In this document: positions 3 through 39,231 of the stretch, in pieces
Numbering within the stretch: the first letter of the stretch is position 1
How the letters are laid out: each line of letters opens with the position of its first letter
From: Bacilli bacterium
GTDB lineage: Bacteria; Bacillota_I; Bacilli_A; ML615J-28; CAG-313
NCBI GenBank assembly: GCA_045536365.1
Contig: JAZSNL010000020.1
Span: 96,767 to 160,766, forward strand
DNA length: 64,000 nucleotides
Direction of reading: 5' to 3'
Program-made: the position numbers and the translations under genes
Notes under the pieces: model-generated
Database searches by the model: none
What the model saw: the letters and a program-made list of their open reading frames with translations, nothing else
What the model was told of the DNA's origin: nothing

Positions 3-407
3 GAAATTAAACCTGAGTATTTAACTGGTGAATCATTTACATTCACTTTCACAGCATCTGATACTGAATCAGAAGAGTTAACTTATACTGTTTATATAAT
101 AGAAAATAATTCAGAAACTGTTCTTAAAACAGGAACAATTACTGATAATACTGAAAGTGTAACTGTAGGACCTTATTTCTGGACATTTAAAGGACAAATA
201 AAAATAGTAGTTTCAGATGGTAAAAAATCAGATGAAAAAATATATGATGTTTCAATAGTTGATCAAGTAACACCTGAACCTGAACCTACACCAACTCCTA
301 CTCCAAAACCAGAGAAAAAAGGATGTAAAAAGAAACAATTAGAATCACTAACACTACTATTTAGTTTAGGATTATCATTAATATTAATAAGAAAAAGGGA
401 TGAATAA
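3..407 (+). CDS. 3' end of a surface protein (5' truncated): beta-rich Ig-like domain, Pro/Thr linker, KKGCKKK-TM-RKR C-terminal tail
   Basis: Not in the ORF track. Frame 3 is open from the window start to TAA 405-407 and ends ...DQVTPEPEPTPTPTPKPEKKGCKKKQLESLTLLFSLGLSLILIRKRDE*. Confidence 0.85.
   Translation, partial: EIKPEYLTGESFTFTFTASDTESEELTYTVYIIENNSETVLKTGTITDNTESVTVGPYFWTFKGQIKIVVSDGKKSDEKIYDVSIVDQVTPEPEPTPTPTPKPEKKGCKKKQLESLTLLFSLGLSLILIRKRDE
309..407 (+). other. Candidate GC-type C-terminal sorting signal, copy 1
   Basis: PEKKGCKKKQLESLTLLFSLGLSLILIRKRDE*; Gly-Cys codons at 321-326. Confidence 0.7.
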
Positions 408-409
408 AC

Positions 410-1690
410 ATGAAGTTAAAAAAGAATCATAGTAAAGAATATTTAAAATATTGGCATAATAATGAAGAAATTAATATTCCAAGATATCATTTTAATAAAA
501 ATGATATTCGTGGTGTATGGGTTTCAAATGTTGCAAATATAGATACTCCTAGGGGTTTACCTATTGATGAATATCAAGCGTATTTAAAAGATATGGTTGC
601 AAATATTGCGAGTTATAATTTTAATACAATTATCTTCCAAGTAAGACCTTGTAGTGATGCGTATTATCCTTCAAAACTAAATCCATGGTCTCGTTTTATA
701 ACTGGTGAAGAAGGAAAAGATCCTGGATTTGATGTGTTACAATTTGTCATTGATGAAGCTAAAAAATATAATATTAGAGTACATGCGTGGATGAATCCTT
801 ACCGTGTTGCGCAAGTAAGTTTAGAAAAAATGGAAATGACAAAAGAACAATATTTAGAAACTTTACATGAATTAAATTTTGCAAGAAGACATCCAGAACA
901 TACTATTTTAGATGGTGCTGGTAAGGTAATTCTTTCCCCATCTCACCCAGAAGTTATTGAATTTGTAACAGAAACAATAATGGAAGTAGTGGATAACTAT
1001 GATGTTGAAGGTGTTCATATAGATGACTATTTCTATCCTTACGCAAAGATTCCTGAAGAAGCCGAACAAGAAGATTATTTAAAATATCGTGATTTTGAAG
1101 AACAATCATTTGATGATTTTAGAAGAAGCAATGTTAATAAAATGATTAAAAGCATTCATGATGCTATGAAAAAATCGTTTGACAAAAATAATAGAAAAGT
1201 TGACTTTGGTATCAGCCCTTTCGCAATCTATCGTACACATAGTTCAATAGTAGAAGGTGGTTGGGATAAAGGATCTTATCATTCTGCAGGTGCTTTACAA
1301 TGTTATAGTGAGTTATATTCTGATATTTACTTATGGATGAAAGAAGGATGGATTGATTATGTTGTTCCTCAAGTATATTTCCCATTCAGTAGAAAAGATG
1401 TAACTTATCATGACTTAGTATGGTGGTGGAATAATATTTGTGAAGAAACTAAAACTAAACTTTATATTGGTATGGGTATATATCAAATGGGTTCTAAAAA
1501 TGCGGAAGGTGAATTACATCCAGCATGGGATAATCCATTAGAAATTCAAAATCAATTAAAGTTTAATTGTCAATTTGAAAATGTTAGTGGAGTTATTTTC
1601 TTCACTTATAAAGATTTTGTAAAAGGTCAAAATGAAATTAAGAATGAGGCTTTAGATACTGTTAAAAAGTTGTTTAAAGCTAATAAATAA
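410..1690 (+). CDS. Glycoside hydrolase-like family 10 protein (GHL10/DUF187; YddW/DigH/YngK-like), no signal peptide
   Basis: RGVWV, FQVRP.SDAYYPS...PWS, GFDVL, HAWMNPYR, GVHIDDYFYP, FGISPF and GWIDYVVPQVY motifs. Confidence 0.85.
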   Translation: MKLKKNHSKEYLKYWHNNEEINIPRYHFNKNDIRGVWVSNVANIDTPRGLPIDEYQAYLKDMVANIASYNFNTIIFQVRPCSDAYYPSKLNPWSRFITGEEGKDPGFDVLQFVIDEAKKYNIRVHAWMNPYRVAQVSLEKMEMTKEQYLETLHELNFARRHPEHTILDGAGKVILSPSHPEVIEFVTETIMEVVDNYDVEGVHIDDYFYPYAKIPEEAEQEDYLKYRDFEEQSFDDFRRSNVNKMIKSIHDAMKKSFDKNNRKVDFGISPFAIYRTHSSIVEGGWDKGSYHSAGALQCYSELYSDIYLWMKEGWIDYVVPQVYFPFSRKDVTYHDLVWWWNNICEETKTKLYIGMGIYQMGSKNAEGELHPAWDNPLEIQNQLKFNCQFENVSGVIFFTYKDFVKGQNEIKNEALDTVKKLFKANK

Positions 1691-1700
1691 TTAAAAAAAT

Positions 1701-1746
1701 AAGAACAATATGACTAAAATAATTTTAGTTTATATTGTTCTTTTTT
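1701..1746 (+). terminator. Intrinsic terminator
   Basis: AAGAACAATATGACTAAAAT / ATTTTAGTTTATATTGTTCTT imperfect stem followed by a T run. Confidence 0.7.
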
Positions 1747-1785
1747 CTTTTTCTTCTTAAAATTAAATTTTAACTAGTGTTTCAC

Positions 1786-1814
1786 TTGAATAAAAACGTT
1801 TTCTTTGGTATAAT
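1786..1814 (+). promoter_or_regulatory. SigA promoter of the GH20/ABC operon, with a cre/LacI-like site in the spacer
   Basis: TTGAAT(1786)-17 bp-TATAAT(1809) with TGn extension; TAAAAACGTTTTCT at 1791-1804. Confidence 0.7.
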
Positions 1815-1874
1815 AAGTAAAGTAGTATGGGGTTTTTTCTAAACTTAAGAAAACTCGCGAAAGGAGGCCTTAAA

Positions 1875-3701
1875 ATGTATATTTTTCCTAAACCAAAGTT
1901 TGTAGAACAGTATGATAAAATATTTGATACAACAATAGAAAAAGTATCATTAGGGTCTTTTTCTTATAACCTTTTAAGAGAATTAGAAAGTATTTTTAAA
2001 GGTAAGCTTCAAAATGTTAATGAACCTGGTATAAAGACAATTTCTTTTGTCAATAACCTAATGGTTGAACAACAGGGTTATTTATTATTGATGAAGGATG
2101 AACAAATTATTATTGAGGCTTCTACTGATGTCGGTGCTTATTATGCGGTGCAGACATTGAAACAAATATTTAAATCTTCCCCTGTTAATTGTGTTAAGAT
2201 TTATGATTATCCGGATTTGGAAATCAGGGGTATTATGTTAGATATAAGTAGAAATAAAGTTCCTTTAGTTGATACGATAAAACAATTGATAGATGTATTT
2301 AGTAGTTTGAAAATTAATCATTTGGAGCTTTATATTGAAGGGTTTGCGTTAGAGTATAAAAAATATCAAGATATTATTCCACATAAGAATCATCTTAAAC
2401 AAAGTGAATATATTGAAATTGAGAACTACGCAAATGAACGATATATAGATTTAGTACCTAATCAAAATGGATTTGGACATATGGAAGAGTGGCTCGCGTT
2501 AGATGAATTTAAAGATTTAGCTGAGTGTCCGGATGGATTTACTATTTGGGGTAGTCACCGACCGCCTACAACGCTTAATCCTCTTGATGAAAGATCGACT
2601 GAATTAGTTAAGAGTTTGTATGATGAGTTACTTCCAATAAGTACTTCAAAGTATTTCCATATGAACTTTGATGAGCCTTATGAATTAGGCCATGGAAAAA
2701 GTAAAGAATTATGTGATGAATTAAGTAAAGAAGATGTATATATTAACTATTTCACTCCTCTTGCAAGTTATGTGAAGAGTTTCCATAAAACACCGATGTT
2801 GTGGGGAGATGTATTGATTCACAATAAAGATGCGATTTATAAACTGCCTCATGATGTAATATTTGTTGATTGGGGATATCATAAAGCTTATAATTTTGAA
2901 GAACATGCGAAGATGTTAAATAGTTTAGGAATAAGTTATCTTCTTGCTCCAGGTACTTCGACATGGTCTAATTTTACATGTCGATATGAAGATATGTATA
3001 CAACGATTCAAAATAGTGCAGAGGCTGCTAAACAATATAATGGTCTTGGAATATTAACAACTGATTGGGGAGATATAGGTCACTTACAATATTTACCTTT
3101 CAGTATGCCGGGCTTCATTTTAGGGGCTTGTTGCAGTTGGGGATCGATGAATGATGAAGAGTTAAAAATATGTTTAGGTAATCTGTTAGGAAGCTCAGAT
3201 TTAGCGAGTATAATTTATAATCTGTCTCAATATACAAGCCTTGAAGGCGAATATAGAGATTACGGTAGCAGGTTGTTCTCTAGTATTTTATGGGCAGAAC
3301 ATGTTATACGAGAAAAACAAGGATTAGATGTTTATTTTAAAAAAATACAAAATAATATTTTAGAGAAAAAAGCGGTTGAAGATATTAGTAAATTGTTTAA
3401 TGAATCTAAAGAAAAATTGAAGAAGTTGTATAATAATACAATTTGTCAAGAGTTGTCTAATACGATATTTATATTAGAAACTTTACTAGAATTAAATATT
3501 TTCTTTGGTGAGTATTTAAACAATCAATATGATGAACATAAACTAGTTAAAATATCTAAAAAATTAGATCAATATGCTCAAACTCATTATGGACTTTGGT
3601 GTGAGCGTAATTTAGAAGAAGGATACTTTATCAGTATTCAAAAAATTAAAAAAGTTCAAAGAATCTTAGAAATGATACAAATAAAGGAGAAAAGTGTATG
3701 A
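1875..3701 (+). CDS. GH20-family beta-N-acetylhexosaminidase-like protein, no signal peptide
   Basis: GH20b N-domain (GAYYAVQTLKQ), RGIMLDISR, FGHM and catalytic HMNFDEPY. Start moved to ATG 1875 after the AAGGAGG RBS. Confidence 0.8.
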   Translation: MYIFPKPKFVEQYDKIFDTTIEKVSLGSFSYNLLRELESIFKGKLQNVNEPGIKTISFVNNLMVEQQGYLLLMKDEQIIIEASTDVGAYYAVQTLKQIFKSSPVNCVKIYDYPDLEIRGIMLDISRNKVPLVDTIKQLIDVFSSLKINHLELYIEGFALEYKKYQDIIPHKNHLKQSEYIEIENYANERYIDLVPNQNGFGHMEEWLALDEFKDLAECPDGFTIWGSHRPPTTLNPLDERSTELVKSLYDELLPISTSKYFHMNFDEPYELGHGKSKELCDELSKEDVYINYFTPLASYVKSFHKTPMLWGDVLIHNKDAIYKLPHDVIFVDWGYHKAYNFEEHAKMLNSLGISYLLAPGTSTWSNFTCRYEDMYTTIQNSAEAAKQYNGLGILTTDWGDIGHLQYLPFSMPGFILGACCSWGSMNDEELKICLGNLLGSSDLASIIYNLSQYTSLEGEYRDYGSRLFSSILWAEHVIREKQGLDVYFKKIQNNILEKKAVEDISKLFNESKEKLKKLYNNTICQELSNTIFILETLLELNIFFGEYLNNQYDEHKLVKISKKLDQYAQTHYGLWCERNLEEGYFISIQKIKKVQRILEMIQIKEKSV

Positions 3702-6700
3702 GAAAAATTAAGAAGCCCTTTATAGCCTTAATAGTTCTAGTAATTACTTGTTTAGTTGTTGGAACTATAGGGGATCAAATCAAGGCATCTGATGAACCAG
3801 GTTTCACGGCTGGGGATATTTCATCTTATGTTGATAATCCTTATGATGACTATAAAGCAGAAAAACAAGAATATCATCAGACTAAATATGGGGACAAAAC
3901 AGCGTATCCTCAAGTTAATGATATTGTAATTAATGCATATGAGTATTATGGATTTGGTTATACTAGTGAAATGGATGAAAATGGATATCAAAGTGTTAAA
4001 GTTGTAGATAAAAATGGTAAAGAATTACAATACTATGAAAATATTGCAACAGAAGCTATTAATGATAAACTAGTTATCCAAGAAGATGATGGAACAATTA
4101 CTTGGAAAGTTGAAATTGCTGAACCTGGTTTTTATAACATGGTTTTCAGATACTATCCAATTGAAGGTTATAGTTCAGCTATCGAAAGAACTATTGCAAT
4201 AAATGGTGAAGTTCCTTTTAGTTCTGCATCTGCAGTAGCATTCTCAAGAATTTGGGCTGATGCTCCTACAGGATATACTTTAGATGAAAATGGTAATAAA
4301 GTATTTAAAACTGACCTTAGAGGAAATGCAACAAAACCTCAACAAGTAGAAAAGAGATATTTCTTAAATACTTATGCAAAAGATGCTATGGGTTATGAAA
4401 CAGAAAATTTCCAATTCTATTTAGATTCAGGTGTTAACTATATTACTTTCATTTCAATTAAAGAACCTATGTTATTAGATACTGTAACTATTAAACCTGT
4501 TAAAGCTGAAAAAACATATGCTCAATATTTACAAGAAATGGAAGCATTACACGGAAGTGTGGATTCATTCCAAGGTGGATTACAAGCAAGAGTTGAAGCA
4601 GAAAATACTTATACTAAATCTTCTCCTACTTTATATCCTACAACTGATAGATCTTCTTCAAAAACTTACCCTTATAGTTATGATAAAACAATGTTAAATA
4701 CTATTGGTGGTACATCATGGGCAACTGTTGGAGATTGGATTAGTTGGAATATTAATGTTCCTGAAGATGGTTATTATAATATTTCAATGAGAGTTAAACA
4801 AAACACAGTAAAAGGTATGTATTCTACTCGTGTTGTTTATATTGATGATGAAGTTTTATTTGATGAATTAAGTAGTGTTATTTTCCCTTATGATAATAAA
4901 TGGTATAATTATACATTAGGTAATGAACAAGGTGATTTCTTAATTTATTTAGAAAAAGGTGTTCATACATTAAAAATGGAAGTTTCACTTGGTGCTTATT
5001 CTTCATTAATTGAAAGAATTCAAAATGTTATTGATGATTTAAGTGCTATTTACCGTCAAATTATTTCTTATACTACTGTTAATCCAGATAGCAACCGTGA
5101 CTATCAATTAAATAAAAAGTTCCCTACAATGATGGATGAATTTGAAATGTATGCAAAAGAATTAAGAAGTATTTCAGCTGATATCACTGCTATTTCAGGA
5201 ACTAAGAATGATAAGACAGGGGTTATTGATGCAGTAGCAGTACAAATTGAAGACTTCTTAGACAGACCTGGAACAATTCCTGCTCGTTTAGGAACTTTCA
5301 GTACTAATATTTCTTCACTTGGTACAATCTTATTAGATTTAAGATCTGCACCATTACAATTCGACTATATTTCAGCTCATTCAGAAGATGTTGAATTACC
5401 TAAAGCAAATGCTAATTTCTTTAGAAAAATTTGGGATGGTATCGTATCATTCTTTGTATCTTTCTTTATTGATTATTCTGCAATCGGTGAAACTGTAGAA
5501 AGTACAGGTTCAAGAACAATTCAAGTATGGATGACTGCTGGTCGTGACCAAGCTAACGTTATTCGTAACTTAATAGATACAAACTTTAGAAAACAAAATC
5601 CAGAAGTTAATGTTGAATTAAAACTTACTGGTGCTGACGTATTATTAAAAGCAACTTTAGCAGGTATTGGACCTGAAGTTGCGTTAAACGTTGACTCTTC
5701 ACTTGCAGTTAACTATGGTTTAAGAAATGCCGTATTAGATTTAACTACAATTGATGAATTCTGGGATACAATTTATATTATCCCTGATGGATCTAATGAT
5801 TATAAAACTGCTCAAGCAGCTGGTTATGAAAATGTTTATATGGCTAGCTCAATGAGATTATATCAATTCTCTGATTATACAACAGATGCAATGTTTGATA
5901 GTACAAGTGTTTCATCTATTGAATATATGAAAGAAAATATTACAGGTGTTTATGCTTTACCTGAAAAACAAAATTTCTTAATGATGTTCGTACGTGATGA
6001 CGTATTAAAAGATTTAGGATTAGAAGATCAAATTCCTGAAACTTGGGATGATGTATTAGATTTAGTTGCTGAATTACAAACTGAACAATTACAATTCTAT
6101 ATTCCAGTTAATGATGCTGGTGCGACAGCTCTTAACCCAATCTTTGTAAGTCTTTTATATCAAAACGGTGGACAATTATATACAGATGATAACCGTGAAA
6201 CTGCATTATTATCAGAACCTGCAATGGATGCGTTCGAATATTGGACTGAGTTTTATACACTTTACTCATTCCCTAAATCAGCAAATTTCGTAAACCGTTT
6301 CCGTACTGGTGAAATGCCAATCGGTATCTCTTATTATGATTTATATAACACTTTAAGTGTTTCTGCTCCTGAATTAAAAGGTAAATGGTCATTCCATATT
6401 ATTCCTGGTACTGAAAGAGTAATCGTGGATGCACAAGGAAATGAAACTACTTATGTTGACCACACTTCAGTAACTTCTGGTTCTGCGTGTGTTATCTTAA
6501 AAGGTCCTGCATTAAAGAGTGAACAAGCTAAGATGGACTCTTGGGAATTCTTAAAATGGTGGACATCAGCTGATATTCAAGCTCAATTTGGTCGTGAAAT
6601 GGAAGGTATCTTAGGTGCTGCTGCTCGACACAATACAGCTAACGTTATCGCATTACAAGAATTATCTTGGACTTCTGGCGAATTAAGTATCTTAATGGAA

Positions 6701-6895
6701 CAATGGAAACAAACTCATGAAATGCCTAATATAGCAGGTAGTTATATGACAGGTCGTGAAATGGAAAATGCATTCCGTCAAGTAATTAATAACTTATATA
6801 ACGCTAGAGAAGTATTATACGAATACGCATTTAATATCAATAATGAAATTGATCGTAAACGTAAAGAATTTAACTTACCATTAAAAGGAGAATAG
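3698..6895 (+). CDS. Very large carbohydrate ABC solute-binding protein with N-terminal CBM-like beta-sandwich domains
   Basis: Signal peptide; two CBM6/35-like segments (W.V.IAEPGFYN; VEAE...WNINVPEDGYYNI); C-terminal SBP fold (IPETWDD, FRTGEMPIGI, WEFLKWW). Confidence 0.8.
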   Translation: MRKIKKPFIALIVLVITCLVVGTIGDQIKASDEPGFTAGDISSYVDNPYDDYKAEKQEYHQTKYGDKTAYPQVNDIVINAYEYYGFGYTSEMDENGYQSVKVVDKNGKELQYYENIATEAINDKLVIQEDDGTITWKVEIAEPGFYNMVFRYYPIEGYSSAIERTIAINGEVPFSSASAVAFSRIWADAPTGYTLDENGNKVFKTDLRGNATKPQQVEKRYFLNTYAKDAMGYETENFQFYLDSGVNYITFISIKEPMLLDTVTIKPVKAEKTYAQYLQEMEALHGSVDSFQGGLQARVEAENTYTKSSPTLYPTTDRSSSKTYPYSYDKTMLNTIGGTSWATVGDWISWNINVPEDGYYNISMRVKQNTVKGMYSTRVVYIDDEVLFDELSSVIFPYDNKWYNYTLGNEQGDFLIYLEKGVHTLKMEVSLGAYSSLIERIQNVIDDLSAIYRQIISYTTVNPDSNRDYQLNKKFPTMMDEFEMYAKELRSISADITAISGTKNDKTGVIDAVAVQIEDFLDRPGTIPARLGTFSTNISSLGTILLDLRSAPLQFDYISAHSEDVELPKANANFFRKIWDGIVSFFVSFFIDYSAIGETVESTGSRTIQVWMTAGRDQANVIRNLIDTNFRKQNPEVNVELKLTGADVLLKATLAGIGPEVALNVDSSLAVNYGLRNAVLDLTTIDEFWDTIYIIPDGSNDYKTAQAAGYENVYMASSMRLYQFSDYTTDAMFDSTSVSSIEYMKENITGVYALPEKQNFLMMFVRDDVLKDLGLEDQIPETWDDVLDLVAELQTEQLQFYIPVNDAGATALNPIFVSLLYQNGGQLYTDDNRETALLSEPAMDAFEYWTEFYTLYSFPKSANFVNRFRTGEMPIGISYYDLYNTLSVSAPELKGKWSFHIIPGTERVIVDAQGNETTYVDHTSVTSGSACVILKGPALKSEQAKMDSWEFLKWWTSADIQAQFGREMEGILGAAARHNTANVIALQELSWTSGELSILMEQWKQTHEMPNIAGSYMTGREMENAFRQVINNLYNAREVLYEYAFNINNEIDRKRKEFNLPLKGE

Positions 6896-6904
6896 GAGGT
6901 AAAT

Positions 6905-8296: not shown

Positions 8297-8297
8297 G

Positions 8298-9323: not shown

Positions 9324-9335
9324 GAGGTAGATGGT

Positions 9336-11965: not shown

Positions 11966-11979
11966 GAGGTGTAGACGTT

Positions 11980-15528: not shown

Positions 15529-15537
15529 GAGGTAGCT

Positions 15538-17728: not shown

Positions 17729-17746
17729 TATTTAATTATAAGGAGA

Positions 17747-18439: not shown

Positions 18440-18458
18440 AAAGAAATGGAGAATAAAT

Positions 18459-20681
18459 ATGAAAAAGTTTTTAAATTATTTACTTACTTTTTTAGTGATG
18501 TTAACTTTAGTATTTGTTGGTGTTAATACAACTAAATTAGATGCATTATATTCATCAAGTACTTTAAGAGAAGCTGAAGAAGCAAAAGTTACTAATCTTG
18601 TTGGTGGTGTAACATTATACAAACAAAGATTAGAAACTCTTTATAATGGTACAGGTGTTAGTGGAAATATTAAAGATTTATGGAATAATCATACTGTACA
18701 ATGGGTTGATTTACCTGCAAGTAATACAGGTGTTAAAGTAGTTACTTGGAGTAAAGGTAATACAAATGGATGGCAAAAAGCTACAGTTAAACAAACAATG
18801 CAGGATTTTGAATCAAAACATCCTGGATGGATTGTTGTAGCTGGTGTTAATGGCGACTTCTTTGATAATTCATCTGGTGGTACTAGTGAACCTACAGGTT
18901 TCTATGTTCAAGATGGCGGTGAAGTTTTCCGTCCTGATCATGCAGGTGCTGGATATCGTTTAACTTTAGGTTGGAATAATGATGGCTCATATATTACTGG
19001 AAGACCTACTCATGATGAAAAAATGACATTACATGTTGGAGATAAAGAATATACAGTTAATTCTGTTAATAGTGCTCCTGCAGCTGAAGGTGTTACTTTA
19101 TTAACAGTAGATGCTTCAAGTGCATATGATTTAACTGGTTATACAGTTTATAAAGTTGACAATGGCGCTTACCGTGTTGCGAGCGGAAATAAGAAATTAT
19201 TTGTTAAAGGTTATGTAGTTTCTCTTGAAGATTCTTTAAGTAGTGTAAAAGCAGAAAAAGGCTATTTCTATCTTGCATCAAAAGATGGTTCATTAGATGG
19301 ATTAAAAGCTGATGATTTTGTAAAAGTTCAATATGATTTAACTGGAAATTGGGCGAATGTTAATAGTGCTGTTGGTTATATTTATCAAGTATTAATTAAT
19401 AATGAACATAAATATGAAAATAATGGTGTTCAATATGATCATTTAGGTGTAAGAGATAATGACTTCATTTATACTACTCATCCTCGTACATTAGTAGGTT
19501 TTAAAGAAGATGGTTCAACAGTATTAATGGTAGTAGATGGTCGTGGAAAAGCTTCAGATTATTTAGAAGGTGCTTCTTTATATCAATGTGGTGAATTATT
19601 ACAACATGCTGGTTGTGTTAATGGATTTAACTTAGATGGTGGAGGTTCTTCAACATTAGTAGTTAGAAATGAACAAGGTGGATTTGATGTTATTAATACA
19701 CCTAGTGATGGTACTGAAAGATATATTGGTAATGCCATTTTATTTGTAATGGAAGATCCTGGAATTAAAACTGACGCAAGTTATTCTGATAGATCTTCTA
19801 TTAAAATTGATATTAATGAAAATACTTATGGTTCATTACAAAATGTTGTTGCGGTAGTAGATGGAAAAGAATATCCATTTACAAGTAATTCATTAGTAAT
19901 TAATGGATTAAATGAAGATACAAAATATCAAGTAAAAGTTAAATATCAAATTAAAGATTATCGTGGAACAGGAAATTGGTTAAATAATGAAACATTAGTT
20001 ACTGCTTATACTGCTCCATTTGTTATGCCATCTAGTGGATTGAAAATAGATAGTAGAAGTATTACAAATGTTGGATTTAAAGTAATTAAAGAAGATTTTG
20101 GACACGCAGCTAACATTAGAAACGTTGTTATTCAAGTAGGAGATAACGTATATCAAATGGGAGATGCGATGGAATTTGTTATTAATGATTTAATTATTGA
20201 TACTGAATATGATGTTTCAATAAGTTATGAAGTTTATGATGAATTAACAGGTAAACTTTATCCAGGATCACTTGATCCAGTTAAAGTGAAAACTGCTTCA
20301 TTTATAGCTCCATCTATTACAAGATTTGAAGAAAAAGGTATCATATCTGAACAATATGTTTTCGCATATACATATGCAGATAAGAGTTCAAAAGTTGAAG
20401 AAGCTTATTTATTAGTAAATGATGTTAAACATATGGCTGATGCAAAATCAGGAAACTTTAGAATTGCTGATATTGATTTAAACAAATCATCTTATACAAT
20501 TAAATTTGTATTAGAATATACAAATGATCAAGGTGAAAAAGTAAAAGTTGAGTCTGAAACAATTACATTAAATCAAATTGTTCAAGAACCTAAAAAAGGT
20601 TGTAAGAAAAAAGCAGAAGCTATTATTTGTTTTACAACTGCAATTGCAGCAATTGGTGTATTATTAAGAAAGAAACATTAA
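18459..20681 (+). CDS. Surface phosphodiester glycosidase (NAGPA/DUF2233 domain) with FN3-like repeats and KKGCKKK-TM-RKK tail
   Basis: Signal peptide; AGVNGDFF, HPRTLVG, MVVDGR, NLDGGGSS and PSDG.ER motifs; FN3-like INGLNEDTKY and INDLIIDTEY. Confidence 0.85.
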   Translation: MKKFLNYLLTFLVMLTLVFVGVNTTKLDALYSSSTLREAEEAKVTNLVGGVTLYKQRLETLYNGTGVSGNIKDLWNNHTVQWVDLPASNTGVKVVTWSKGNTNGWQKATVKQTMQDFESKHPGWIVVAGVNGDFFDNSSGGTSEPTGFYVQDGGEVFRPDHAGAGYRLTLGWNNDGSYITGRPTHDEKMTLHVGDKEYTVNSVNSAPAAEGVTLLTVDASSAYDLTGYTVYKVDNGAYRVASGNKKLFVKGYVVSLEDSLSSVKAEKGYFYLASKDGSLDGLKADDFVKVQYDLTGNWANVNSAVGYIYQVLINNEHKYENNGVQYDHLGVRDNDFIYTTHPRTLVGFKEDGSTVLMVVDGRGKASDYLEGASLYQCGELLQHAGCVNGFNLDGGGSSTLVVRNEQGGFDVINTPSDGTERYIGNAILFVMEDPGIKTDASYSDRSSIKIDINENTYGSLQNVVAVVDGKEYPFTSNSLVINGLNEDTKYQVKVKYQIKDYRGTGNWLNNETLVTAYTAPFVMPSSGLKIDSRSITNVGFKVIKEDFGHAANIRNVVIQVGDNVYQMGDAMEFVINDLIIDTEYDVSISYEVYDELTGKLYPGSLDPVKVKTASFIAPSITRFEEKGIISEQYVFAYTYADKSSKVEEAYLLVNDVKHMADAKSGNFRIADIDLNKSSYTIKFVLEYTNDQGEKVKVESETITLNQIVQEPKKGCKKKAEAIICFTTAIAAIGVLLRKKH
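20583..20681 (+). other. Candidate GC-type C-terminal sorting signal, copy 2
   Basis: QEPKKGCKKKAEAIICFTTAIAAIGVLLRKKH*; Gly-Cys at 20598-20603. Confidence 0.7.
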
Positions 20682-20682
20682 T

Positions 20683-22239
20683 ATGAAAAATATGACTTTG
20701 AAAGAAAAAATAGGTCAAATGATAGGACTTGCTTTTTCTGGAACAGATTATAATGAAGATTTAAAATATCAAGTAGAAGAAATAGGAGTAGGGTTAATAA
20801 TTTATTTTAAAGACAATTGTGCTAATCCTGAACAAATCTTTAATTTGAATAAAGAAATCAATTCACACGCCAAAATAGCCCCATTTATCGCTTTAGACCA
20901 AGAAGGTGGAATGGTAGCAAGGGTTACACAAGGTGTTACTCAATCACCTGGAGCAATGGCAATTTCAGCAACACAAAATGTTAAAAATGCTTATAATATG
21001 GCTTATAATATGGGCGTTGAACTCCGCAAAATAGGTTTTAATTTAAATTTTGCTCCAGTGGGTGATATTAATAATAATCCTAAAAATCCTGTTATTAATG
21101 TAAGATCTTATAGTGAAGATCCTCAAGTAGTAAAAGAATATGTATATGAAGCTGTAAAAGGATATAGTGATGCAGGGATGATGAGTACTATTAAACATTT
21201 CCCTGGTCATGGAGATACTGCTGTAGATTCCCATGTAGGGCTACCTGTTATTGATTTTGATAAAGAAAGATTAGAACAAGTTGAATTAGTTCCTTTCAGA
21301 CTTGCAAAAGAAAAAAATCTTCCCGGTATTATGGCAAGTCATGTATTATATACTAAATATGATGATACATATCCAACTACTTTATCAAAGAAAGTAGTGA
21401 CTGGTTTATTAAGAGAAGAAATTGGATATGATGGATTAGTAGTAACTGATTCACTTACAATGTCAGCTGTTTTTGGTAGATACAGCATTGAAGAAATAGC
21501 TTTACATAGTTTTAATTCTGGTTGTGACATTTTATTACTTTGTGGTGGAAGACAATTAGAAATGCAAAAACAATTTGCAGAAGCTGCATTAAGACTTGCA
21601 GAAGAAGGAAAAATTCCACTTGAAGTAATTGATCGTAGTGTAGAAAGAATTTTACGATATAAGAAAATGTTTAATGCAGGTCAAATGGCAAACTCATTCG
21701 AAGATATTAAAGATGAATTAGAAGTACCTTCTAGCATGCAGGAAGCTCAAAAAGTTGCACAAGATAGTATGACTTTAATTAAAAATGATAATCATTTAAT
21801 CCCTATTAGAAAAGAACAAAAAACATTAGTAGTTTTCCCTCAAATTAAAGTAGTAACTTTAGTTGAAAATGAAGATAATACTCTTAATTCATTAGGTGAT
21901 TTTATGCCGTTTGAAGTAGATAAACATTATATTTCAATTGATCCTACAGAAGAAGAAAAGAAACTTCTTAGAGATAAAGAAAAAGACTATGATGTAATTG
22001 TATATTGTAGTTATAATGCTTGTTTTAATAAAGAACAAGAAGAACTAATTAATAGTTTAAATAAGGATAAATTAATAGTAGTTGCGATAAGAACACCGTA
22101 TGATATTAATGTATTAAATGTACCTACATACCTATGTGCATATGAAGCAAGTGTTTTAAGTTTTCAAGCAATTGCGAATGTTTTATCCGGTAAAAATAAG
22201 GCAACAGGTAAATTACCAGTAACGATAAAGGAGAAATAA
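20683..22239 (+). CDS. nagZ: GH3 beta-N-acetylglucosaminidase, two-domain, cytoplasmic
   Basis: DQEGG.V.R, NagZ signature KHFPGHGDTAVDSH and VTDSL.M; no signal peptide. Confidence 0.9.
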   Translation: MKNMTLKEKIGQMIGLAFSGTDYNEDLKYQVEEIGVGLIIYFKDNCANPEQIFNLNKEINSHAKIAPFIALDQEGGMVARVTQGVTQSPGAMAISATQNVKNAYNMAYNMGVELRKIGFNLNFAPVGDINNNPKNPVINVRSYSEDPQVVKEYVYEAVKGYSDAGMMSTIKHFPGHGDTAVDSHVGLPVIDFDKERLEQVELVPFRLAKEKNLPGIMASHVLYTKYDDTYPTTLSKKVVTGLLREEIGYDGLVVTDSLTMSAVFGRYSIEEIALHSFNSGCDILLLCGGRQLEMQKQFAEAALRLAEEGKIPLEVIDRSVERILRYKKMFNAGQMANSFEDIKDELEVPSSMQEAQKVAQDSMTLIKNDNHLIPIRKEQKTLVVFPQIKVVTLVENEDNTLNSLGDFMPFEVDKHYISIDPTEEEKKLLRDKEKDYDVIVYCSYNACFNKEQEELINSLNKDKLIVVAIRTPYDINVLNVPTYLCAYEASVLSFQAIANVLSGKNKATGKLPVTIKEK

Positions 22240-22242
22240 AAA

Positions 22243-22965
22243 ATGAATGTTATTGTTGTAAAAGACTATCAAGAAATGAGCAAGCTTGGTGCAGAAATAA
22301 TCGCTAAGCAAATTAAAAACAAACCTGATTCAATTTTAGGTCTTGCAACAGGAGGAAGCCCTGTTGGAACATACCAAAATTTAGTTAAGGCTTATCAAAA
22401 TAAAGAAATTTCATTCAAAGAAATTAAAACTTATAACTTAGATGAATATGTTGGTATTCCTCAAACACATCCACAAAGCTATTATTATTTCATGCATGAT
22501 AATTTATTTAATCATGTTGATATCTTAGAAGAAAATGTTCATATTCCTGCTATTTCTTCAGATAATTATGAAGAAGATTGTAAGAAATATAATGAAGCTT
22601 TAAATAGTGTTAAAATTGATTTACAATTATTAGGAATTGGTGGAAATGGTCATATTGGATTCAATGAACCAGGCACTCCATTTGAACAAGAAACTTTCAT
22701 CGTAGAACTAACTGAAAAAACTAGAGAAGATAATAAACGTTTCTTCAATAGTATTGATGAAGTTCCTACTCATGCAATTACAATGGGTATTAAAAACATT
22801 ATGAATAGTTCAAGTATTTTAATGTTAATTAGCGGTGAAGCTAAAGCTGATACAGTTGTGAGATTATTAAAAGGTGAAATTGATCCTTCTTTCCCTGCAT
22901 CAGTTTTACATAATCATAAGAATGTAACTGTTATTATCGATCAAGCTGCTTATTCAAAAATGTAA
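22243..22965 (+). CDS. nagB: Glucosamine-6-phosphate deaminase
   Basis: LGLATGGSP, NLDEYVG, LGIGGNGHIGFNEPG, AITMGI and FPASVL. Confidence 0.95.
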   Translation: MNVIVVKDYQEMSKLGAEIIAKQIKNKPDSILGLATGGSPVGTYQNLVKAYQNKEISFKEIKTYNLDEYVGIPQTHPQSYYYFMHDNLFNHVDILEENVHIPAISSDNYEEDCKKYNEALNSVKIDLQLLGIGGNGHIGFNEPGTPFEQETFIVELTEKTREDNKRFFNSIDEVPTHAITMGIKNIMNSSSILMLISGEAKADTVVRLLKGEIDPSFPASVLHNHKNVTVIIDQAAYSKM

Positions 22966-22969
22966 TATT

Positions 22970-22997
22970 AAAACTCACCTTTGTAGGTGAGTTTTTT
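22970..22997 (+). terminator. Intrinsic terminator ending the ~21-kb GH20-nagB operon
   Basis: AAAACTCACCT-TTGT-AGGTGAGTTTT plus T tract. Confidence 0.85.
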
Positions 22998-23069
22998 ATC
23001 TTGGAAACGCTGAATTAATTGACAAAAATTAAAAAAAGAGTAAAATAATAGTAAATATGAGGTGATTAA

Positions 23070-24140
23070 ATGATTAAGAAAATCTTAAAATCAATTGGTA
23101 TTATATTTGGTGCTTTTTTATTAATTGTAATAGGATACATAACATATATTTTATTAGATTATAAAAGAGTTGAAGATAATCAAGAGTTACCAATCTTTCA
23201 CCAAACAAGTAATGTTGTAAAACTAGAAGCAGAATATAAAATAATAACTTATAATATTGGTTTTGGTGCTTATGAAGATGATTATAGTTTCTTTATGGAT
23301 GGTGGAAAATATTCAAGAGCTTTTTCTAAAGAAAGATTAGAAAAGAATTTAGAAAATATTAAAAACTTTTTAAAGGAACAAAATAGTGATTTTTATTTAC
23401 TTCAAGAAGTTGATGAATTAGGAACAAGATCATATAAAGTAAATCAAAAAGAATTGTTTATTGATGCATTTAATGATTATGAAGCTGTATGGGCTCAAAA
23501 TTATGATAGTTCATATTTGTTTTATCCATTGCATTCACCACATGGTAAAAATAAAGCTGGTATAATTTCCTTAAGCAGATTTGATATTTTATCTTCAAAA
23601 AGAAGAAGTTTGCCAATTGAGACATCATTAATGAAATTTGTTGATTTAGATAGATGTTATAGTGTATCTAGAATTAAAATGGAAAATGGTAAAGAACTTG
23701 TTTTATATAATGTTCATTTATCTGCTTATACTTCTGATGGTAAAATTGCTGAAGAACAATTAGAAATGTTAATTATAGATATGCAGGAAGAATATAATAA
23801 AGGCAATTATGTTGTTTGTGGTGGGGATTTTAATAAAGATTTATCAGGTGATGTAGAGTCTCACTTTGGTATTTCCGGAGAAGAATATACATGGGCTCAA
23901 CCTATTCCTGAAGATATGTTTGATAATAGTAATTTAAGATTAGTATTTGCGTATGATGAGAATACGAAAGTCCCTTCTTGTCGTAATGCTGATGAACCTT
24001 ATCATTCAGAACAGTTTGTTTTAACTGTTGATGGATTTATTGTTTCTGATAATGTAGATATAATTTCTTCTAGAGTAATTGATTTGAAATTTGAATATTC
24101 TGATCATAATCCTGTTGAAATGATATTTAAATTAAAATAG
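23070..24140 (+). CDS. Membrane-anchored endonuclease/exonuclease/phosphatase (EEP) family protein
   Basis: N-terminal TM; TYNIG, LQEVD, NVHL, GGDFN and SDH catalytic motifs. Confidence 0.85.
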   Translation: MIKKILKSIGIIFGAFLLIVIGYITYILLDYKRVEDNQELPIFHQTSNVVKLEAEYKIITYNIGFGAYEDDYSFFMDGGKYSRAFSKERLEKNLENIKNFLKEQNSDFYLLQEVDELGTRSYKVNQKELFIDAFNDYEAVWAQNYDSSYLFYPLHSPHGKNKAGIISLSRFDILSSKRRSLPIETSLMKFVDLDRCYSVSRIKMENGKELVLYNVHLSAYTSDGKIAEEQLEMLIIDMQEEYNKGNYVVCGGDFNKDLSGDVESHFGISGEEYTWAQPIPEDMFDNSNLRLVFAYDENTKVPSCRNADEPYHSEQFVLTVDGFIVSDNVDIISSRVIDLKFEYSDHNPVEMIFKLK

Positions 24141-24151
24141 CGAGGTAGTTT

Positions 24152-24772
24152 ATGAATAGAAAAAAGAAAATATATGAAATGGTTTTATTAAGTTTACTTG
24201 CAACAATAATAGTAGTAATGTCTTTTACACCGATTGGGTTTATTAAAATTCCTGCTCTTGGTTTAGAAATTACGTTTTTAATGATTCCTGTTGCGGTAGG
24301 AGCTATTTTACTTGGTCCTTTATATGGTGCGTTACTTGGATTTATATTTGGTTTTACAAGTTTATTACAATGTGTATTTGGAACAAGTCCTTTTGGTGCA
24401 ACTCTTTTAACTATTAATCCTATTTATACTATTATAGTTTGTGTTGTTTCAAGAACTTTAATGGGTTATTTAACTGGATTAATTTATAAGCTATTAGAGA
24501 AAAAACTTAAAGATAGTGTTGTTTCACATATCATTACTTGTGCTTCATCTGCTATTTTAAATACTTTATTCTTTATGTCTTTGTTATGTCTTTGTTTTTA
24601 TAATACTGAATATTTACAATCAATTGGAACTGGTCTTGGTACATCTAATGTCTTTGCGTTTGTTATTGCTTTTGTAGGTATAAATGGGTTAGTAGAAGCA
24701 GGGGTAAATATTGTAATTGGTGCTGCTGTTTCTAAAGTAATAGCGGTTAATTTTAAGAAAAAGTATAAATAA
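24152..24772 (+). CDS. ECF transporter S component (PanT-like)
   Basis: FTPIGFI...IPVAVGAILLGP.YGA.LG.IFG; ~6 TMs. Confidence 0.8.
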   Translation: MNRKKKIYEMVLLSLLATIIVVMSFTPIGFIKIPALGLEITFLMIPVAVGAILLGPLYGALLGFIFGFTSLLQCVFGTSPFGATLLTINPIYTIIVCVVSRTLMGYLTGLIYKLLEKKLKDSVVSHIITCASSAILNTLFFMSLLCLCFYNTEYLQSIGTGLGTSNVFAFVIAFVGINGLVEAGVNIVIGAAVSKVIAVNFKKKYK

Positions 24773-24793
24773 AAATAATAGTATAATTTTGAA

Positions 24794-24832
24794 TAAAAAA
24801 CGCTTTTTAAATGTAATAAAAAGCGTTTTTTA
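24794..24832 (+). terminator. Perfect 16-bp inverted repeat (terminator; arms also resemble cre/LacI sites)
   Basis: TAAAAAACGCTTTTTA-7 nt-TAAAAAGCGTTTTTTA. Confidence 0.6.
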
Positions 24833-24894
24833 CTTTATTTTTTTATATTGTAAAAAAAAGGAATAAAATTTTTTTGATTTTATGTGTTAAAACC

Positions 24895-24942
24895 TTGCAA
24901 AGCGTTTTCATTTATGCTATAATATAATCGCAAACGCTTTCA
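24895..24942 (+). promoter_or_regulatory. SigA promoter with two cre/LacI-like operators
   Basis: TTGCAA(24895)-17-TATAAT(24918) with TGn; GCAAAGCGTTTTCA 24897-24910 and CGCAAACGCTTTCA 24929-24942. Confidence 0.7.
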
Positions 24943-24966
24943 AAAAATAATAGGAGGAAATAAATT

Positions 24967-27783
24967 ATGAAAAAAGTCTTTGCTGTTATAAGTACATTGT
25001 TACTTACAATTGCTTGCATTGGATTACTTTCTTCTAATGTTAATGCATCTGGTGCATTATTTACAGATCCAGTTGAAGCTGGCGCATTAGAAAAAGATGA
25101 AATTCCAGTGTATATTATGGATAGTATTTACACTACTTTCCCTCAATACTACGATAATAACGCTGTTGCTGACGAAGCTTGGCCAGGTTCAACTCGTATG
25201 TATCCATGGAATGAAGTAAAATTACGTGTAGCTCAATTAGATGAAAATGGTGAAGCTACAGGTATGTATTATGCAATATTCTTCTCAGGTGCATTAAATG
25301 CAACTGATTCAGGTGCTGGTAATAACATTATGTTATTAGATGCTGAAGTTGCTGAAGATGGTACAGTTACTGCTGTTTCTAAGAGAACAAGTAACACTAA
25401 TAAAGAAGGTTACATCGTTGCTGACCACCCTCAAGACCAATCATTATCTCACATTAGTGTTAATATCTCTGATTACGATTTAGTAATTCAACCTACTCAA
25501 TTCTACATTAGCAGTTCTACATCTACTGGTTATGGTTCTCAAATCATGAACAGAAGTATGATCTTCGATGGTGAAGGTCGCGCTATTCGTGGTGTTGGTA
25601 TCAATGAATTCTATGTTGCTCCAACTGATTCTGCATATAAAGGTTACGGATTCGAAGCAGAATTCTGCTACGTTGATGGTGTTGTAACTAAATATGAAGA
25701 CGGTGTTGTTTGTGATAAAGTTAAAGAACAAGTTCTTGATGAATCAGGTAACCCAGTTATGGACGAAAATAACGAACCTTTAATGAAAGACACTGATAAA
25801 GACAACTTCTTATACGAAAGATTCGTATGGGAATGGTTCGAAGAAAAACCTGAAAATGTTAACACTGCTGCTTACCTTTCTGAAGGTTGGGATCCTACTC
25901 TTTGGGATTACTGCTGGGAACAAGATGGCGGTTATATGTGTATCGCATTCAATGGTTCTGCTGGTACTTTAGATTCAATGACTGCTGCTCAAAAAGCTGC
26001 TTACATGGCTAACAATGGTTTAACTGAAGAAACTAATCTTCCTAAACGTGATTGTATCTCTTATGTAAGAGTTCCTGCTGGCGGCTTTATCTATGACTTT
26101 GGTTACTTAGACAATGGTTTAGAAGGCCCTACAACTGCATTCTTCAACATTATACATGGTGGTTACAAACATGGTAGACAATTATTCGGTGAAGAAGAAG
26201 CTAAACACGGTGTTGCTGAAGTTAAAACTGTTAACTTCTCTGCTAAACCTATCTATACAGCTGACGTTGTTAAAAATGGTCAATCTTTACAATTAAAAGA
26301 AGGTACTAACGTTGTTGAAGTTTTAGAAGGAACTAACATTTATCCAAGTTGGATGTTCAACTATGCTGGTTTAGCTAAGATGTATACTCGTCAAGATGAC
26401 GTTACTTCTTACTCTTCAGATACATCTGTATTAGACGTAACTGTTAAATTAAACGGTGCTACAGTTGTTTCTCCAATCAACTGGCCTTATAACGATGCTA
26501 CAGTTCAAGATATGTACAGAGACTTATTCGATGATTTAAGACACTGGTATAAAGGTGACTTAACAATCGATGGTGTTTTAGATGAAAACGGTGAACCTCT
26601 AGTTATTGGTTACTCTGATCCAAGTGTTGCTGTTAAATTCGGTGCTGCAATTGATGATTTAGATGCATTCATCGAAGCATGGTGTGCAACTGTTGTTGAC
26701 TCTTGGGGTCTATTCAATGGTAGCAATACTGGTTTCTTTAACAATGAACACGTTGCTTCTAAATGGTTATTATACACTAACTATATGGATGACTTAATGA
26801 ACGGTGCATTCTGGTCAAGTGCTTGGACTTCTGCAGTTCGTATGAGAAACTACTATCAAGGTACTGATAATTTCCCTGACAAGAGAAATGGTGCTGTATT
26901 AGATAAAACTCCTCAAGTTGCTACAGAACCTAGCTACAACTTCACAGTTGGTGCTGCTCCTTCAAGATATAGCGTTGAATATTCAGTAGTTAACTCTATC
27001 ACTGGTGTTACTGACTCTTTAACAGTATTATTCCAAGTTGTTAACGAATATACTCCAATCGTTGATGTTAATGAAGACGCATTAATCGTTGAACCAGGAT
27101 CTGGTGCTATCGATCGTTATGACTTATTCGTAGCTTACGATGGTCAATATTCTGCAGCTTCTCAAGATATTAGAGGTACAATTATTACTGAACAAGCAGT
27201 AGTTACATCTGAAACATTAGATTTCGATAACCCTGCTGAAGGTAAACACCAAGTTAAGATCGAAGTTACAAGCTTAGGCGGAACTAAGAAAGTTGTTAAA
27301 TATGTTACTCTTGAAGTATTAGATATGACTGCTCCAAATGTTATTGTTAAAGACGTTCTTAAAGTTCCTTACGGAAGTGCATTTGATCCTCGTATGGGTA
27401 TCGAAGTTGCTTATGACACTGTTGATGGTGACTTAATGCAATCAGGTGTTAAATGGTGGGCAGAACAAACCCTTAATAAAGTTGATACATCTAAAGCTGG
27501 TGAAGACTTCAAAGTTACAGTTGCTGTATTCGATGCTGCTGGTAATGAAACTAAAGTTCAATACACAGTTATAGTTGGTGATGCTCCTGCTACATTAGAA
27601 GAAATCGAAAGTTTATTAGATGATAAATTAGCTGCTCTTGAAAGTTTAGAAAACATTGAATTAAAATTAGAAGAAATTAATTCATATGTTAAACCTTCTG
27701 GATGCAAATCTAAATCTTTATTCTTTGTTGAATTCTTAGCAGTTGCTGGTGCTTTAGCTTTAATCTTAAGAAAAAAACACTAA
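24967..27783 (+). CDS. Large secreted surface protein: unrecognised N-terminal region, Ig-like repeats (DUF5011-like), coiled stalk, SGCKSK-TM-RKK tail
   Basis: Signal peptide (..SSNVNA/S); DMTAPNVIV, AYDTVDGDL and DAAGNET Ig-repeat motifs; heptad-like LEEIESLLDDKLAALESLENIELKLEEI. Confidence 0.75.
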   Translation: MKKVFAVISTLLLTIACIGLLSSNVNASGALFTDPVEAGALEKDEIPVYIMDSIYTTFPQYYDNNAVADEAWPGSTRMYPWNEVKLRVAQLDENGEATGMYYAIFFSGALNATDSGAGNNIMLLDAEVAEDGTVTAVSKRTSNTNKEGYIVADHPQDQSLSHISVNISDYDLVIQPTQFYISSSTSTGYGSQIMNRSMIFDGEGRAIRGVGINEFYVAPTDSAYKGYGFEAEFCYVDGVVTKYEDGVVCDKVKEQVLDESGNPVMDENNEPLMKDTDKDNFLYERFVWEWFEEKPENVNTAAYLSEGWDPTLWDYCWEQDGGYMCIAFNGSAGTLDSMTAAQKAAYMANNGLTEETNLPKRDCISYVRVPAGGFIYDFGYLDNGLEGPTTAFFNIIHGGYKHGRQLFGEEEAKHGVAEVKTVNFSAKPIYTADVVKNGQSLQLKEGTNVVEVLEGTNIYPSWMFNYAGLAKMYTRQDDVTSYSSDTSVLDVTVKLNGATVVSPINWPYNDATVQDMYRDLFDDLRHWYKGDLTIDGVLDENGEPLVIGYSDPSVAVKFGAAIDDLDAFIEAWCATVVDSWGLFNGSNTGFFNNEHVASKWLLYTNYMDDLMNGAFWSSAWTSAVRMRNYYQGTDNFPDKRNGAVLDKTPQVATEPSYNFTVGAAPSRYSVEYSVVNSITGVTDSLTVLFQVVNEYTPIVDVNEDALIVEPGSGAIDRYDLFVAYDGQYSAASQDIRGTIITEQAVVTSETLDFDNPAEGKHQVKIEVTSLGGTKKVVKYVTLEVLDMTAPNVIVKDVLKVPYGSAFDPRMGIEVAYDTVDGDLMQSGVKWWAEQTLNKVDTSKAGEDFKVTVAVFDAAGNETKVQYTVIVGDAPATLEEIESLLDDKLAALESLENIELKLEEINSYVKPSGCKSKSLFFVEFLAVAGALALILRKKH
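27688..27783 (+). other. Candidate GC-type C-terminal sorting signal, copy 3
   Basis: VKPSGCKSKSLFFVEFLAVAGALALILRKKH*; Gly-Cys at 27700-27705. Confidence 0.7.
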
Positions 27784-33978: not shown

Positions 33979-34005
33979 AAAAATAGGAATTTTATTCCTA
34001 TTTTT
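33979..34005. terminator. Bidirectional terminator between convergent genes
   Basis: AAAAATAGGAAT-TTT-ATTCCTATTTTT. Confidence 0.7.
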
Positions 34006-35705: not shown

Positions 35706-35729
35706 CTTAATTCCTCCATTTATAAATAT

Positions 35730-35813: not shown

Positions 35814-35818
35814 AAAAG

Positions 35819-36103: not shown

Positions 36104-36169
36104 ATTTATTATTAATGAAAAAAAGATTAAAATATAGTATAATAATACCAAAAAGAAAAGAGGAACATT

Positions 36170-36889: not shown

Positions 36890-36900
36890 GGAAATAAAAT

Positions 36901-39230: not shown

Positions 39231-39231
39231 T

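Follow-up and report, generated by a model that had tools for sequence, protein, structure and literature searches.

The textbook route by which Firmicutes display proteins at the cell surface is sortase acting on LPXTG, and C-terminal sorting signals decide which proteins become surface proteins. Which signal serves a walled gut lineage from which sortase is nearly absent? The question is raised by a 64,000-nucleotide stretch of a Bacilli genome (G000:C8:96767-160766; hereafter the window, with G000 denoting the window's own genome), where three secreted proteins end in nearly the same tail, composed of a Gly-Cys-Lys motif, a hydrophobic helix and a basic end. An earlier note on this DNA had proposed that this tail, referred to below as the tag, is a Cys-dependent sorting signal that acts as an inverted lipoprotein signal. 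Our analysis gives good support to the view that the tag is a functional, modular C-terminal anchoring or sorting domain with a chemically important Cys, and tentatively favours one scheme for how it is processed.

A shared tail on secreted proteins

The three tails were found in the window exactly as the earlier note had quoted them, all on the forward (+) strand. The first (309..404, stop codon 405-407) consists of a PEKK-GC-KKK motif, a hydrophobic helix and an RKRDE end, with 26 residues from the Cys to the C-terminus. It closes the partial C-terminal 134 amino acids (3..407) of a secreted GHL10 glycosyl-hydrolase-like protein of 725 amino acids, encoded in full at G000:C8:94996-97173 and matching PF02638 GHL10 with an E-value of 1.4e-44. 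The second copy (EPKK-GC-KKK, helix, RKKH) lies at 20583..20678, where it ends a secreted NAGPA phosphodiester glycosidase of 740 amino acids (18459..20681; Pfam NAGPA PF09992, E 3.3e-32), and the third (KPS-GC-KSK, helix, RKKH) at 27685..27780, where it ends P0001, a secreted protein of 938 amino acids (24967..27783). Both complete proteins start with MKK and a hydrophobic stretch, which bears out the signal peptides claimed for them. The C-terminal part of P0001 is weakly similar to bacterial immunoglobulin (Ig)-like domains, with matches below cutoff (Big_3_2, E 0.023; Bact_surface_Ig-like, E 0.024); its N-terminal 600 amino acids matched no family, and in the protein Atlas it finds only Ig-like surface look-alikes at scores <0.9, LPXTG-anchored proteins among them.

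The earlier note had allowed that the motif might be limited to these three proteins; G000, an assembly of 1.71 Mb in 36 contigs (~29% GC, 95.66% complete), carries nine. When its 3958 stop-to-stop frames (60 amino acids or longer) were scanned with a regular expression, 10 passed, comprising eight large proteins and two spurious frames of 62 and 66 amino acids, and a profile search added the ninth, a GHL10-like protein of 1207 amino acids (C22:34227-37850). By body, the nine are four NAGPA proteins, two GHL10 proteins, one purple-acid-phosphatase-like metallophosphoesterase, one transglutaminase-like protein and the Ig-like P0001, and at least five unrelated body types bear the tag. The dissimilarity of bodies emphasised in the earlier note therefore holds for part of the set: P0001 and the transglutaminase-like protein have no detectable similarity to the other carriers, while 4/9 are NAGPA paralogues, 2/9 are GHL10 proteins, and several carriers share C-terminal stalk similarity of 100–200 residues, some of it Ig/FN3-like.

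A signal-peptide-like start of MKK and a hydrophobic stretch is present in all nine proteins, and, as the note had stated, an LPXTG-like motif is absent from the last 60 residues of each (0/9). Of the proteins in G000 that have both a signal peptide and a single C-terminal helix, ~9/11 have the Gly-Cys by our reading; the only two others lack it.

The Cys as the invariant position

The tag opens with a basic lead-in, on which follow a near-invariant Gly, the invariant Cys, a basic or polar spacer of 3–6 residues, a helix of ~17 residues, 3–6 basic residues and the stop; it can be written as [KS][KG]-G-C-[KG]-K, the spacer, a Ser/Thr-rich helix and [RK]KK[HK]. Variants include KKGCKK, KKKCGK, KGGC[TG]K, KKGCGC and a GCG[NS] subtype, and in the sister family GC[NKG] is followed by small residues. 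The alignment of eight G000 tails shows no variation in the G, the C and both K of GCKxK, nor in one K of the end. Once 25 tails from relatives are added, to give 33 tails from 25 genomes, the Cys remains as the sole invariant column, and this is also the case in a 2419-column alignment (A5) of 62 full-length carriers (see below). The Cys frequency in G000 open reading frames of at least 200 amino acids is 1.2%. At the remaining tail positions identity has fallen to 20–50% while the Cys is fixed. DNA identity over the 33-nucleotide motif region is 33–82%, with synonymous codon differences; this divergence indicates that the likeness of the tails has been maintained and does not reflect a recent copy.

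The helix is rich in Ser and Thr, which make up 18.5% of its core versus 10.2% in 1271 polytopic helix cores of G000, a value reached by 0/5000 random sets. The Cys sits 2–6 residues, mostly 4–5, before the 17-residue hydrophobic core, and in the G000 tails 24–27 residues separate it from the stop. As a side observation made by eye, the helix of many aligned tails starts with a Glu, ~5–7 residues after the Cys (LESL, AEAI, MEVM, MEIV, AELV, IELI; for example window 20583-20678).

Distribution and conservation

Two tail profiles were used, a narrow one (A1) and a broader one built from the 33 tails (A2: eight from G000 and 25 from relatives). The genome-level scan was restricted to the phylum sample, with A2 applied to 399 scored genomes whose completeness is 90% or more; below, f1 is the family of the window and f2 its sister family. 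While A1 matched 29/61 relatives, A2 matched 21/22 genomes of f1, 11/29 of f2 and 9/347 from 28 other families, so that the hidden Markov model scan of the tails suggested in the earlier note shows the tag to recur well beyond G000. The phylum sample, which covers nearly the same families, contained no further tag-positive family. Within f2 the tag is found in genera g14, g18, g24, g27 and g29 and is missing from g15-g17, g20-g23, g26 and g28; G374, G148, G165, G170, G183 and G222 are sporadic carriers. Nine tails from six outlying genomes all have the Gly-Cys, the helix and the basic end; two weak outlying matches cover the helix part only, one without a Cys and one with NCAC.

Searching 1.84 billion cluster representatives with A2 gave 138 proteins at E <=0.001, of which 136 carry a Cys within the motif zone, 135 have [GK]C and 134 have a basic end; nearly all of the matches end at the protein C-terminus, and one, P0007, is a low-complexity false match. 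The distance from Cys to C-terminus is 25–27 residues in 128/136, and the hydrophobic core is followed by 3–6 residues to the end in 133/136, lengths that the profile itself favours. Sixty-three of these proteins look full-length, and 55/63 have an N-terminal hydrophobic stretch. Pfam searches on 62 of the 63 identified NAGPA (37), Flg_new repeats (10), Metallophos (9), GHL10 (7), Big_2 (5) and the hyaluronate-lyase N-domain (3).

Since the profile contains the Cys, the genome and global counts are biased towards it. A check free of this bias comes from NAGPA paralogues in two other metagenome-assembled genomes (MAGs), found by body similarity alone at 42–44% identity: all five have the tag with its Cys (5/5), so that loss of the Cys in orthologues, an outcome that the earlier note had named as telling against its proposal, is not what is seen. 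From these comparisons of sequence, the tag is kept under selection across two families.

A ~70-residue Cys-rich repeat of the T-C-x-x-C-G type is often found ahead of the tag and is widely distributed among relatives. It was seen at L001:2737-3288(+), at residues ~410-490 of G000:C20:29015-30574 and at loci L053, L055 and L067, and occurs also in proteins of 1500–3900 amino acids. The repeat breaks assemblies, and tags consequently show up in tiny frames at contig ends in genomes G325 and G332. Tagged open frames of 32–46 amino acids in these two genomes were considered as mini-genes and rejected, as the contigs end inside repeats.

Genomes without the tag

The NAGPA homologues of tag-negative genomes provide further checks without the bias of the profile. 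G009 is the only tag-negative genome of f1. There, 3/3 NAGPA homologues end in a Cys-less tail, a Gly/Ala-rich helix followed by FFLKRKK and sometimes preceded by GL[PS]TGA (L118:1120-1239(-), L123:1114-1233(-), L128:97-216(-)). The same Cys-less tail is shared by three further large proteins of G009 (L135-L137) and by two proteins of G002. No sortase or rhomboid match was found in G009. This looks like a wholesale swap of one anchor type for another.

The situation differs in four tag-negative f2 genomes, where 9/9 NAGPA homologues lack any C-terminal helix. These homologues (L119-L122, L124, L126, L127, L129; genomes G049, G053, G056 and G057) keep their signal peptides and share a short end peptide, approximately N-x-[ILM]-x-x-[IL]-[LFW]-[NKE], possibly another C-terminal element.

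Candidate enzymes and the cell wall

We searched G000 for members of the known sorting families. Sortase (PF04203) is absent from G000 and present in 2/61 relatives; rhomboid (PF01694) is absent from G000 and from all f1 genomes searched (0/5), while the control was positive in 14/14 reference genomes; and no exosortase/archaeosortase (PF09721) was found in G000. What the genome does have is one Lgt and two PF02517 CPBP genes, a family found in 60/61 relatives. Both CPBP genes lie on other contigs than the window, in keeping with the earlier note's remark that it saw no processing enzyme there. CPBP-1 (G000:C36:3947-4663) was rejected as the cognate enzyme: it occurs in only 7/61 relatives, and its f1 holders, G002 and G011, are not tag-rich genomes. 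CPBP-2 (G000:C31:132104-133102) is an Rce1-like glutamic intramembrane protease of 332 amino acids whose EExxxR, FxxxH and HxxxN motifs are invariant in 19/19 orthologues. Judging from match counts, several tag-rich genomes have exactly one PF02517 match, at the place of CPBP-2. Thus CPBP-2 and Lgt are the sole members of known relevant families in G000, and both are housekeeping proteins.

Many CPBP-2 orthologues (L069-L071, L075, L077, L079, L081, L085) begin with a zinc-ribbon-like CxxC...CxxC that is missing from the G000 protein; the orthologues vary at the N-terminus, whereas the catalytic core is fixed. A complex prediction of CPBP-2 (alignment A3) with the tail (A2), made without controls, scored 0.01, below the mark, and weighs neither for nor against the pairing.

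The tagged transglutaminase-like protein was also considered as an enzyme and rejected, because its relatives match the Cys-rich repeat (~410-490) and not the catalytic core, and it has no conserved orthologue. In nine f2 loci the next gene after the tagged gene mostly encodes an ABC substrate-binding lipoprotein, and at one f2 locus a SipW-like signal peptidase fragment lies two genes off, which we judge incidental. Of the two sortase-positive relatives, G037 has, downstream of a tagged metallophosphoesterase (L064:1-1301(-)), a secreted protein of TasA/camelysin-like type and a fragment resembling the SipW signal peptidase.

The suggestion in the earlier note of a cell with little or no wall is not supported. 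G000 gives two penicillin-binding protein (PBP) transpeptidase matches, and CPBP-2 adjoins an HU-like gene and frames that we read by eye as spoIVA and gerM-like. Classic N-terminal lipoboxes (LSSCG, LFGCY, LASCG) are present in the window itself.

How the tag may work

A class of Cys-containing tripartite signals, with processing by CPBP-family proteases proposed, is set out in the accessible parts of a preprint (Haft 2023, bioRxiv 10.1101/2023.06.07.544157), according to which cognate CPBP and signal strictly co-occur. In the case confirmed by experiment, as given in the accessible parts of Guo et al. 2025 (PMC11980579), the CPBP protein MrtX cleaves MYXO-CTERM in a Cys-dependent manner, also in E. 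coli, and Lgt is proposed as the lipidating enzyme; that MrtX works in E. coli implies that the lipidating enzyme is generic. The model described there comprises Sec export, Lgt-like lipidation of the Cys and cleavage distal to it by a CPBP intramembrane protease, and the authors explicitly note its 'inverted topology' and the fact that a defined lipobox is missing. The layout seen in the earlier note, a Cys-invariant tripartite signal, is supported; its inverted lipoprotein signal is not new as a concept, being already the working model for MYXO-CTERM (PMC11980579; 10.1101/2023.06.07.544157).

Our tentative preference is to read the tail as a lineage-restricted, Cys-containing tripartite sorting or anchoring signal to which housekeeping enzymes apply the published Cys-CTERM scheme, with the Cys, by analogy, probably lipidated and the tail perhaps cleaved. 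After export, the protein would be retained in the membrane by its helix, the Cys lying on the outer face; the thiol would be lipidated by a housekeeping acyltransferase, for which the single Lgt is the obvious candidate; CPBP-2 would then clip the helix distal to the Cys; and the enzyme would remain C-terminally lipid-anchored, with the flanking lysines on the anionic membrane surface. In a walled, nearly sortase-free lineage the tag would thereby take the role that LPXTG has elsewhere. As both enzymes would be housekeeping, the patchy distribution of the tag would reflect its substrates and not a dedicated enzyme. This scheme is favoured by the invariance of the Cys with its small neighbour, the fixed geometry, the Ser/Thr-rich helix, the lack of a cytoplasmic extension, the concerted replacement of tails in G009 and the MrtX result in E. 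coli.

Several observations weigh against it. Lipidation of the Cys and cleavage of the tail are both steps that we infer by analogy, and the example of G009 shows that the same enzymes can use a helix without a Cys. CPBP-2 is found in 56/61 relatives, tag-negative ones included, and in other families its profile gives 47–138 bits in tag-positive genomes versus 24–138 bits in tag-negative ones; within families the tag-positive and tag-negative values are 137.7 versus 138.1 (f13), 100.9 versus 94.0 (f19), and 100.0 and 47.2 versus 75.3 (f9). Because CPBP-2 is present with or without the tag, co-occurrence lends no support, and the strict co-occurrence that defines the published systems is not seen here: the earlier note had looked to a co-occurring protease, and the only candidate from a known sorting family does not track the tag. 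CPBP-2 also stays below the myxosortase cutoffs (MrtJ, 24.9 bits versus 75; MroQ, 25.5 versus 270), and no processing gene adjoins the tagged genes in the loci examined. As for the motif, none of the 33 tails reaches the cutoffs of TIGR03901, TIGR03382, TIGR04564, NF033191 or the CGP-CTERM model; a charged spacer of 3–6 residues separates the Cys from the helix, where Synerg-CTERM has no spacer; and the motif is no lipobox (L-[AS]-[GA]-C), agreeing with it only in the Gly at -1 and having inverted topology.

A serious rival, nearly as likely as the favoured reading and likewise to be held tentatively, is a plain type-I anchor in which the helix stays uncleaved on the mature protein and the conserved juxtamembrane Gly-Cys and lysines do something else, for example S-acylation that is not followed by cleavage, dimerisation through a disulfide, or contacts to anionic lipid or to teichoic acid. 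No tag-correlated protease turned up among the candidates tested, the same enzyme families make do with a Cys-less helix in G009, a C-terminal helix is a simple solution in a sortase-less cell, and the charged spacer would hold the Cys outside the bilayer, all of which speaks for a plain anchor. What such an anchor leaves unexplained is the Cys as the sole invariant residue in 33 tails and 62 carriers (and in 136/138 global matches), the short end of the carriers, which never extends beyond a few basic residues, and the four or five lysines on the outer flank, which seem to conflict with the positive-inside rule.

The failure of CPBP-2 to co-occur with the tag can also be taken to mean that the signal is read by an enzyme family not recognised here instead of by CPBP-2 and Lgt, for example an intramembrane protease of a new kind, or a transpeptidase that would stand in for sortase by joining the Cys or the new C-terminus to a wall polymer. 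We consider this unlikely. Sortase is nearly absent in the order and a wall is present, a patchy tag (11/29 in f2, negative in G009) is what gain and loss of a dedicated gene should produce, and most of the 166 polytopic membrane proteins of G000 (a crude count) lie outside the candidates checked; however, no candidate emerged, tagged genes have no conserved neighbour in the loci examined, the tagged transglutaminase-like protein is not conserved as an orthologue, and the idea arises purely by elimination.

Finally, that the tail has no sorting function and is a C-terminal module hitch-hiking in a few expanding paralogous families with common stalks, alike by common descent, is very improbable: although NAGPA proteins, metallophosphoesterases and GHL10 proteins make up 37, 9 and 7 of the 62 full-length carriers, and two families with partly shared stalks (100–200 residues) supply 6/9 carriers in G000, the tail also sits on bodies without similarity (P0001, the transglutaminase-like protein), the Cys has stayed fixed while the tail drifted to 20–50% in residues and 33–82% in DNA, and all tails changed together in G009.

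Genomic context and significance

The tagged genes of the window lie in a glycan-utilisation cluster (window 410-24772), a context in which the tag marks the extracellular enzymes of the locus. The cluster encodes an intracellular GHL10 protein, GH20, a solute-binding protein of 1065 amino acids with CBM6, two ABC permease pairs and GH3. It further contains an NHL/TPR protein, Yip1, DUF5696, an EEP-family protein, an ECF S-component, a NagB-like deaminase (by eye) and a DUF624-like membrane protein without a Pfam match. Two other MAGs (L039, L040) retain the order permease-NAGPA-GH3-NagB. In window 32001-48000 the G+C content is 24–25%, versus 28–34% in the rest of the window.

The picture that emerges is of an uncultured gut lineage that is nearly sortase-free (2/61) yet walled and that displays glycan- and phosphodiester-cleaving enzymes via a Cys-centred tag. 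No current annotation model recognises the tag, and its carriers are therefore presumably annotated without an anchor call; surface-proteome predictions for these gut MAGs would benefit from a hidden Markov model of A2. The tag would also make two points of the MYXO-CTERM model tractable to test, namely lipidation of an inverted substrate by Lgt and its cleavage by a generic CPBP protein. A bolder claim, and one that we regard as rather doubtful, is that this is the first Cys-CTERM system of Gram-positive-type walled Bacillota, one that does without a dedicated sortase-like enzyme and in which a housekeeping Lgt and a single housekeeping CPBP protein make 'reverse lipoproteins', a prokaryotic and extracytoplasmic counterpart of polybasic-CAAX/Rce1. 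If the housekeeping Lgt/CPBP reading is true, many orphan CPBP proteases of Firmicutes could process the C-termini of surface proteins generally, and the retained polybasic KKGC end would hold the enzymes on the anionic membrane surface.

Comparison with known C-terminal signals

The earlier note had suggested a comparison with the existing CTERM models, and none in NCBIfam (release 20.0) or Pfam reaches cutoff on the whole proteins or the tails. At E <=10 the 33 tails give sub-threshold matches only, mostly to the helix and basic part: LPXTG_anchor (6), Loki-CTERM (5), Rumino_NPXTG (4), Heimdall-CTERM (4), Synerg-CTERM (2, best E 0.05), JDVT-CTERM (1, E 0.053), TIGR03382 GC_trans_RRR (1/33, E 0.0015) and MYXO-CTERM (1/33, E 0.059). 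A literature search found no description of the tag, although the supplementary tables of Haft and Guo could list related signals.

Like LPXTG/sortase signals, the tag combines a motif, a helix and a basic tail and is borne by surface enzymes and Ig-like proteins in Gram-positive-type bacteria, but the LPXTG-like motif itself is missing from 9/9 proteins and sortase from G000. GlyGly-CTERM/rhombosortase calls for a rhomboid along with a Gly-Gly motif, and PEP-CTERM/exosortase and PGF-CTERM/archaeosortase call for a PF09721 gene; G000 has neither a rhomboid nor a PF09721 gene. The N-terminal lipobox (Lgt/LspA) is similar in that a Cys with a small residue before it, here Gly, lies on the outer side of a single membrane helix; unlike the lipobox, the tag is C-terminal, its helix follows the Cys, and positions -2/-3 are Lys or another polar residue and not Leu, Ala or Ser.

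In the eukaryotic polybasic-CAAX arrangement (K-Ras4B type), a lysine cluster lies beside a Cys that is lipidated, after which Rce1 cleaves distally. The likeness, offered as an analogy, has its limits, as the Cys is followed here by ~25 residues, a helix among them, and there by three, and the compartment is extracytoplasmic. Rce1 belongs to the CPBP family and acts after lipidation, according to the accessible parts of both sources cited above (10.1101/2023.06.07.544157; PMC11980579).

Four Cys-CTERM signals are described with named hosts, Myxococcota, Synergistota and archaeal Thermococcales, in the accessible part of the preprint (10.1101/2023.06.07.544157). Three of these, Synerg-CTERM (TIGR04564)/MrtS, JDVT-CTERM (NF033191)/MrtJ and CGP-CTERM/MrtA, resemble the tag in that a short motif containing Gly/Ser ends in a single invariant Cys, with a helix and a basic cluster after it. 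Each also has features of its own that are not seen here: for Synerg-CTERM the lack of a spacer and, within the helix, an invariant Pro; for JDVT-CTERM the DP motif and a target that is adjacent and usually the only one in a genome; and for CGP-CTERM the invariant GP after the Cys. MYXO-CTERM (TIGR03901, older TIGR03382; myxosortase MrtX/MrtC/MrtP) differs from the tag in that the host here is a walled Bacilli-type bacterium with spore genes (read by eye) beside the CPBP gene, the flanks are Lys-rich, the spacer between Cys and helix is charged, the tail is Lys-rich and not Arg-rich in f1, and the signal is not tracked by the CPBP protein, which is ubiquitous. The two are alike in the invariant Cys after Gly, the single helix, the basic end, the dozens of carriers with N-terminal signal peptides, and the presence of CPBP and Lgt in the genome; the GCGC/GCSC doublet typical of MYXO-CTERM is found occasionally here. 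A version in a phylum related to Bacilli/Mollicutes would widen the Cys-CTERM class. With its motif, helix and basic end at the C-terminus, its invariant Cys and its signal-peptide carriers of several families, the tag looks, as far as sequence features go, like an unmodelled addition to the class formed by MYXO-CTERM, Synerg-CTERM, JDVT-CTERM and CGP-CTERM, the nearest described relatives.

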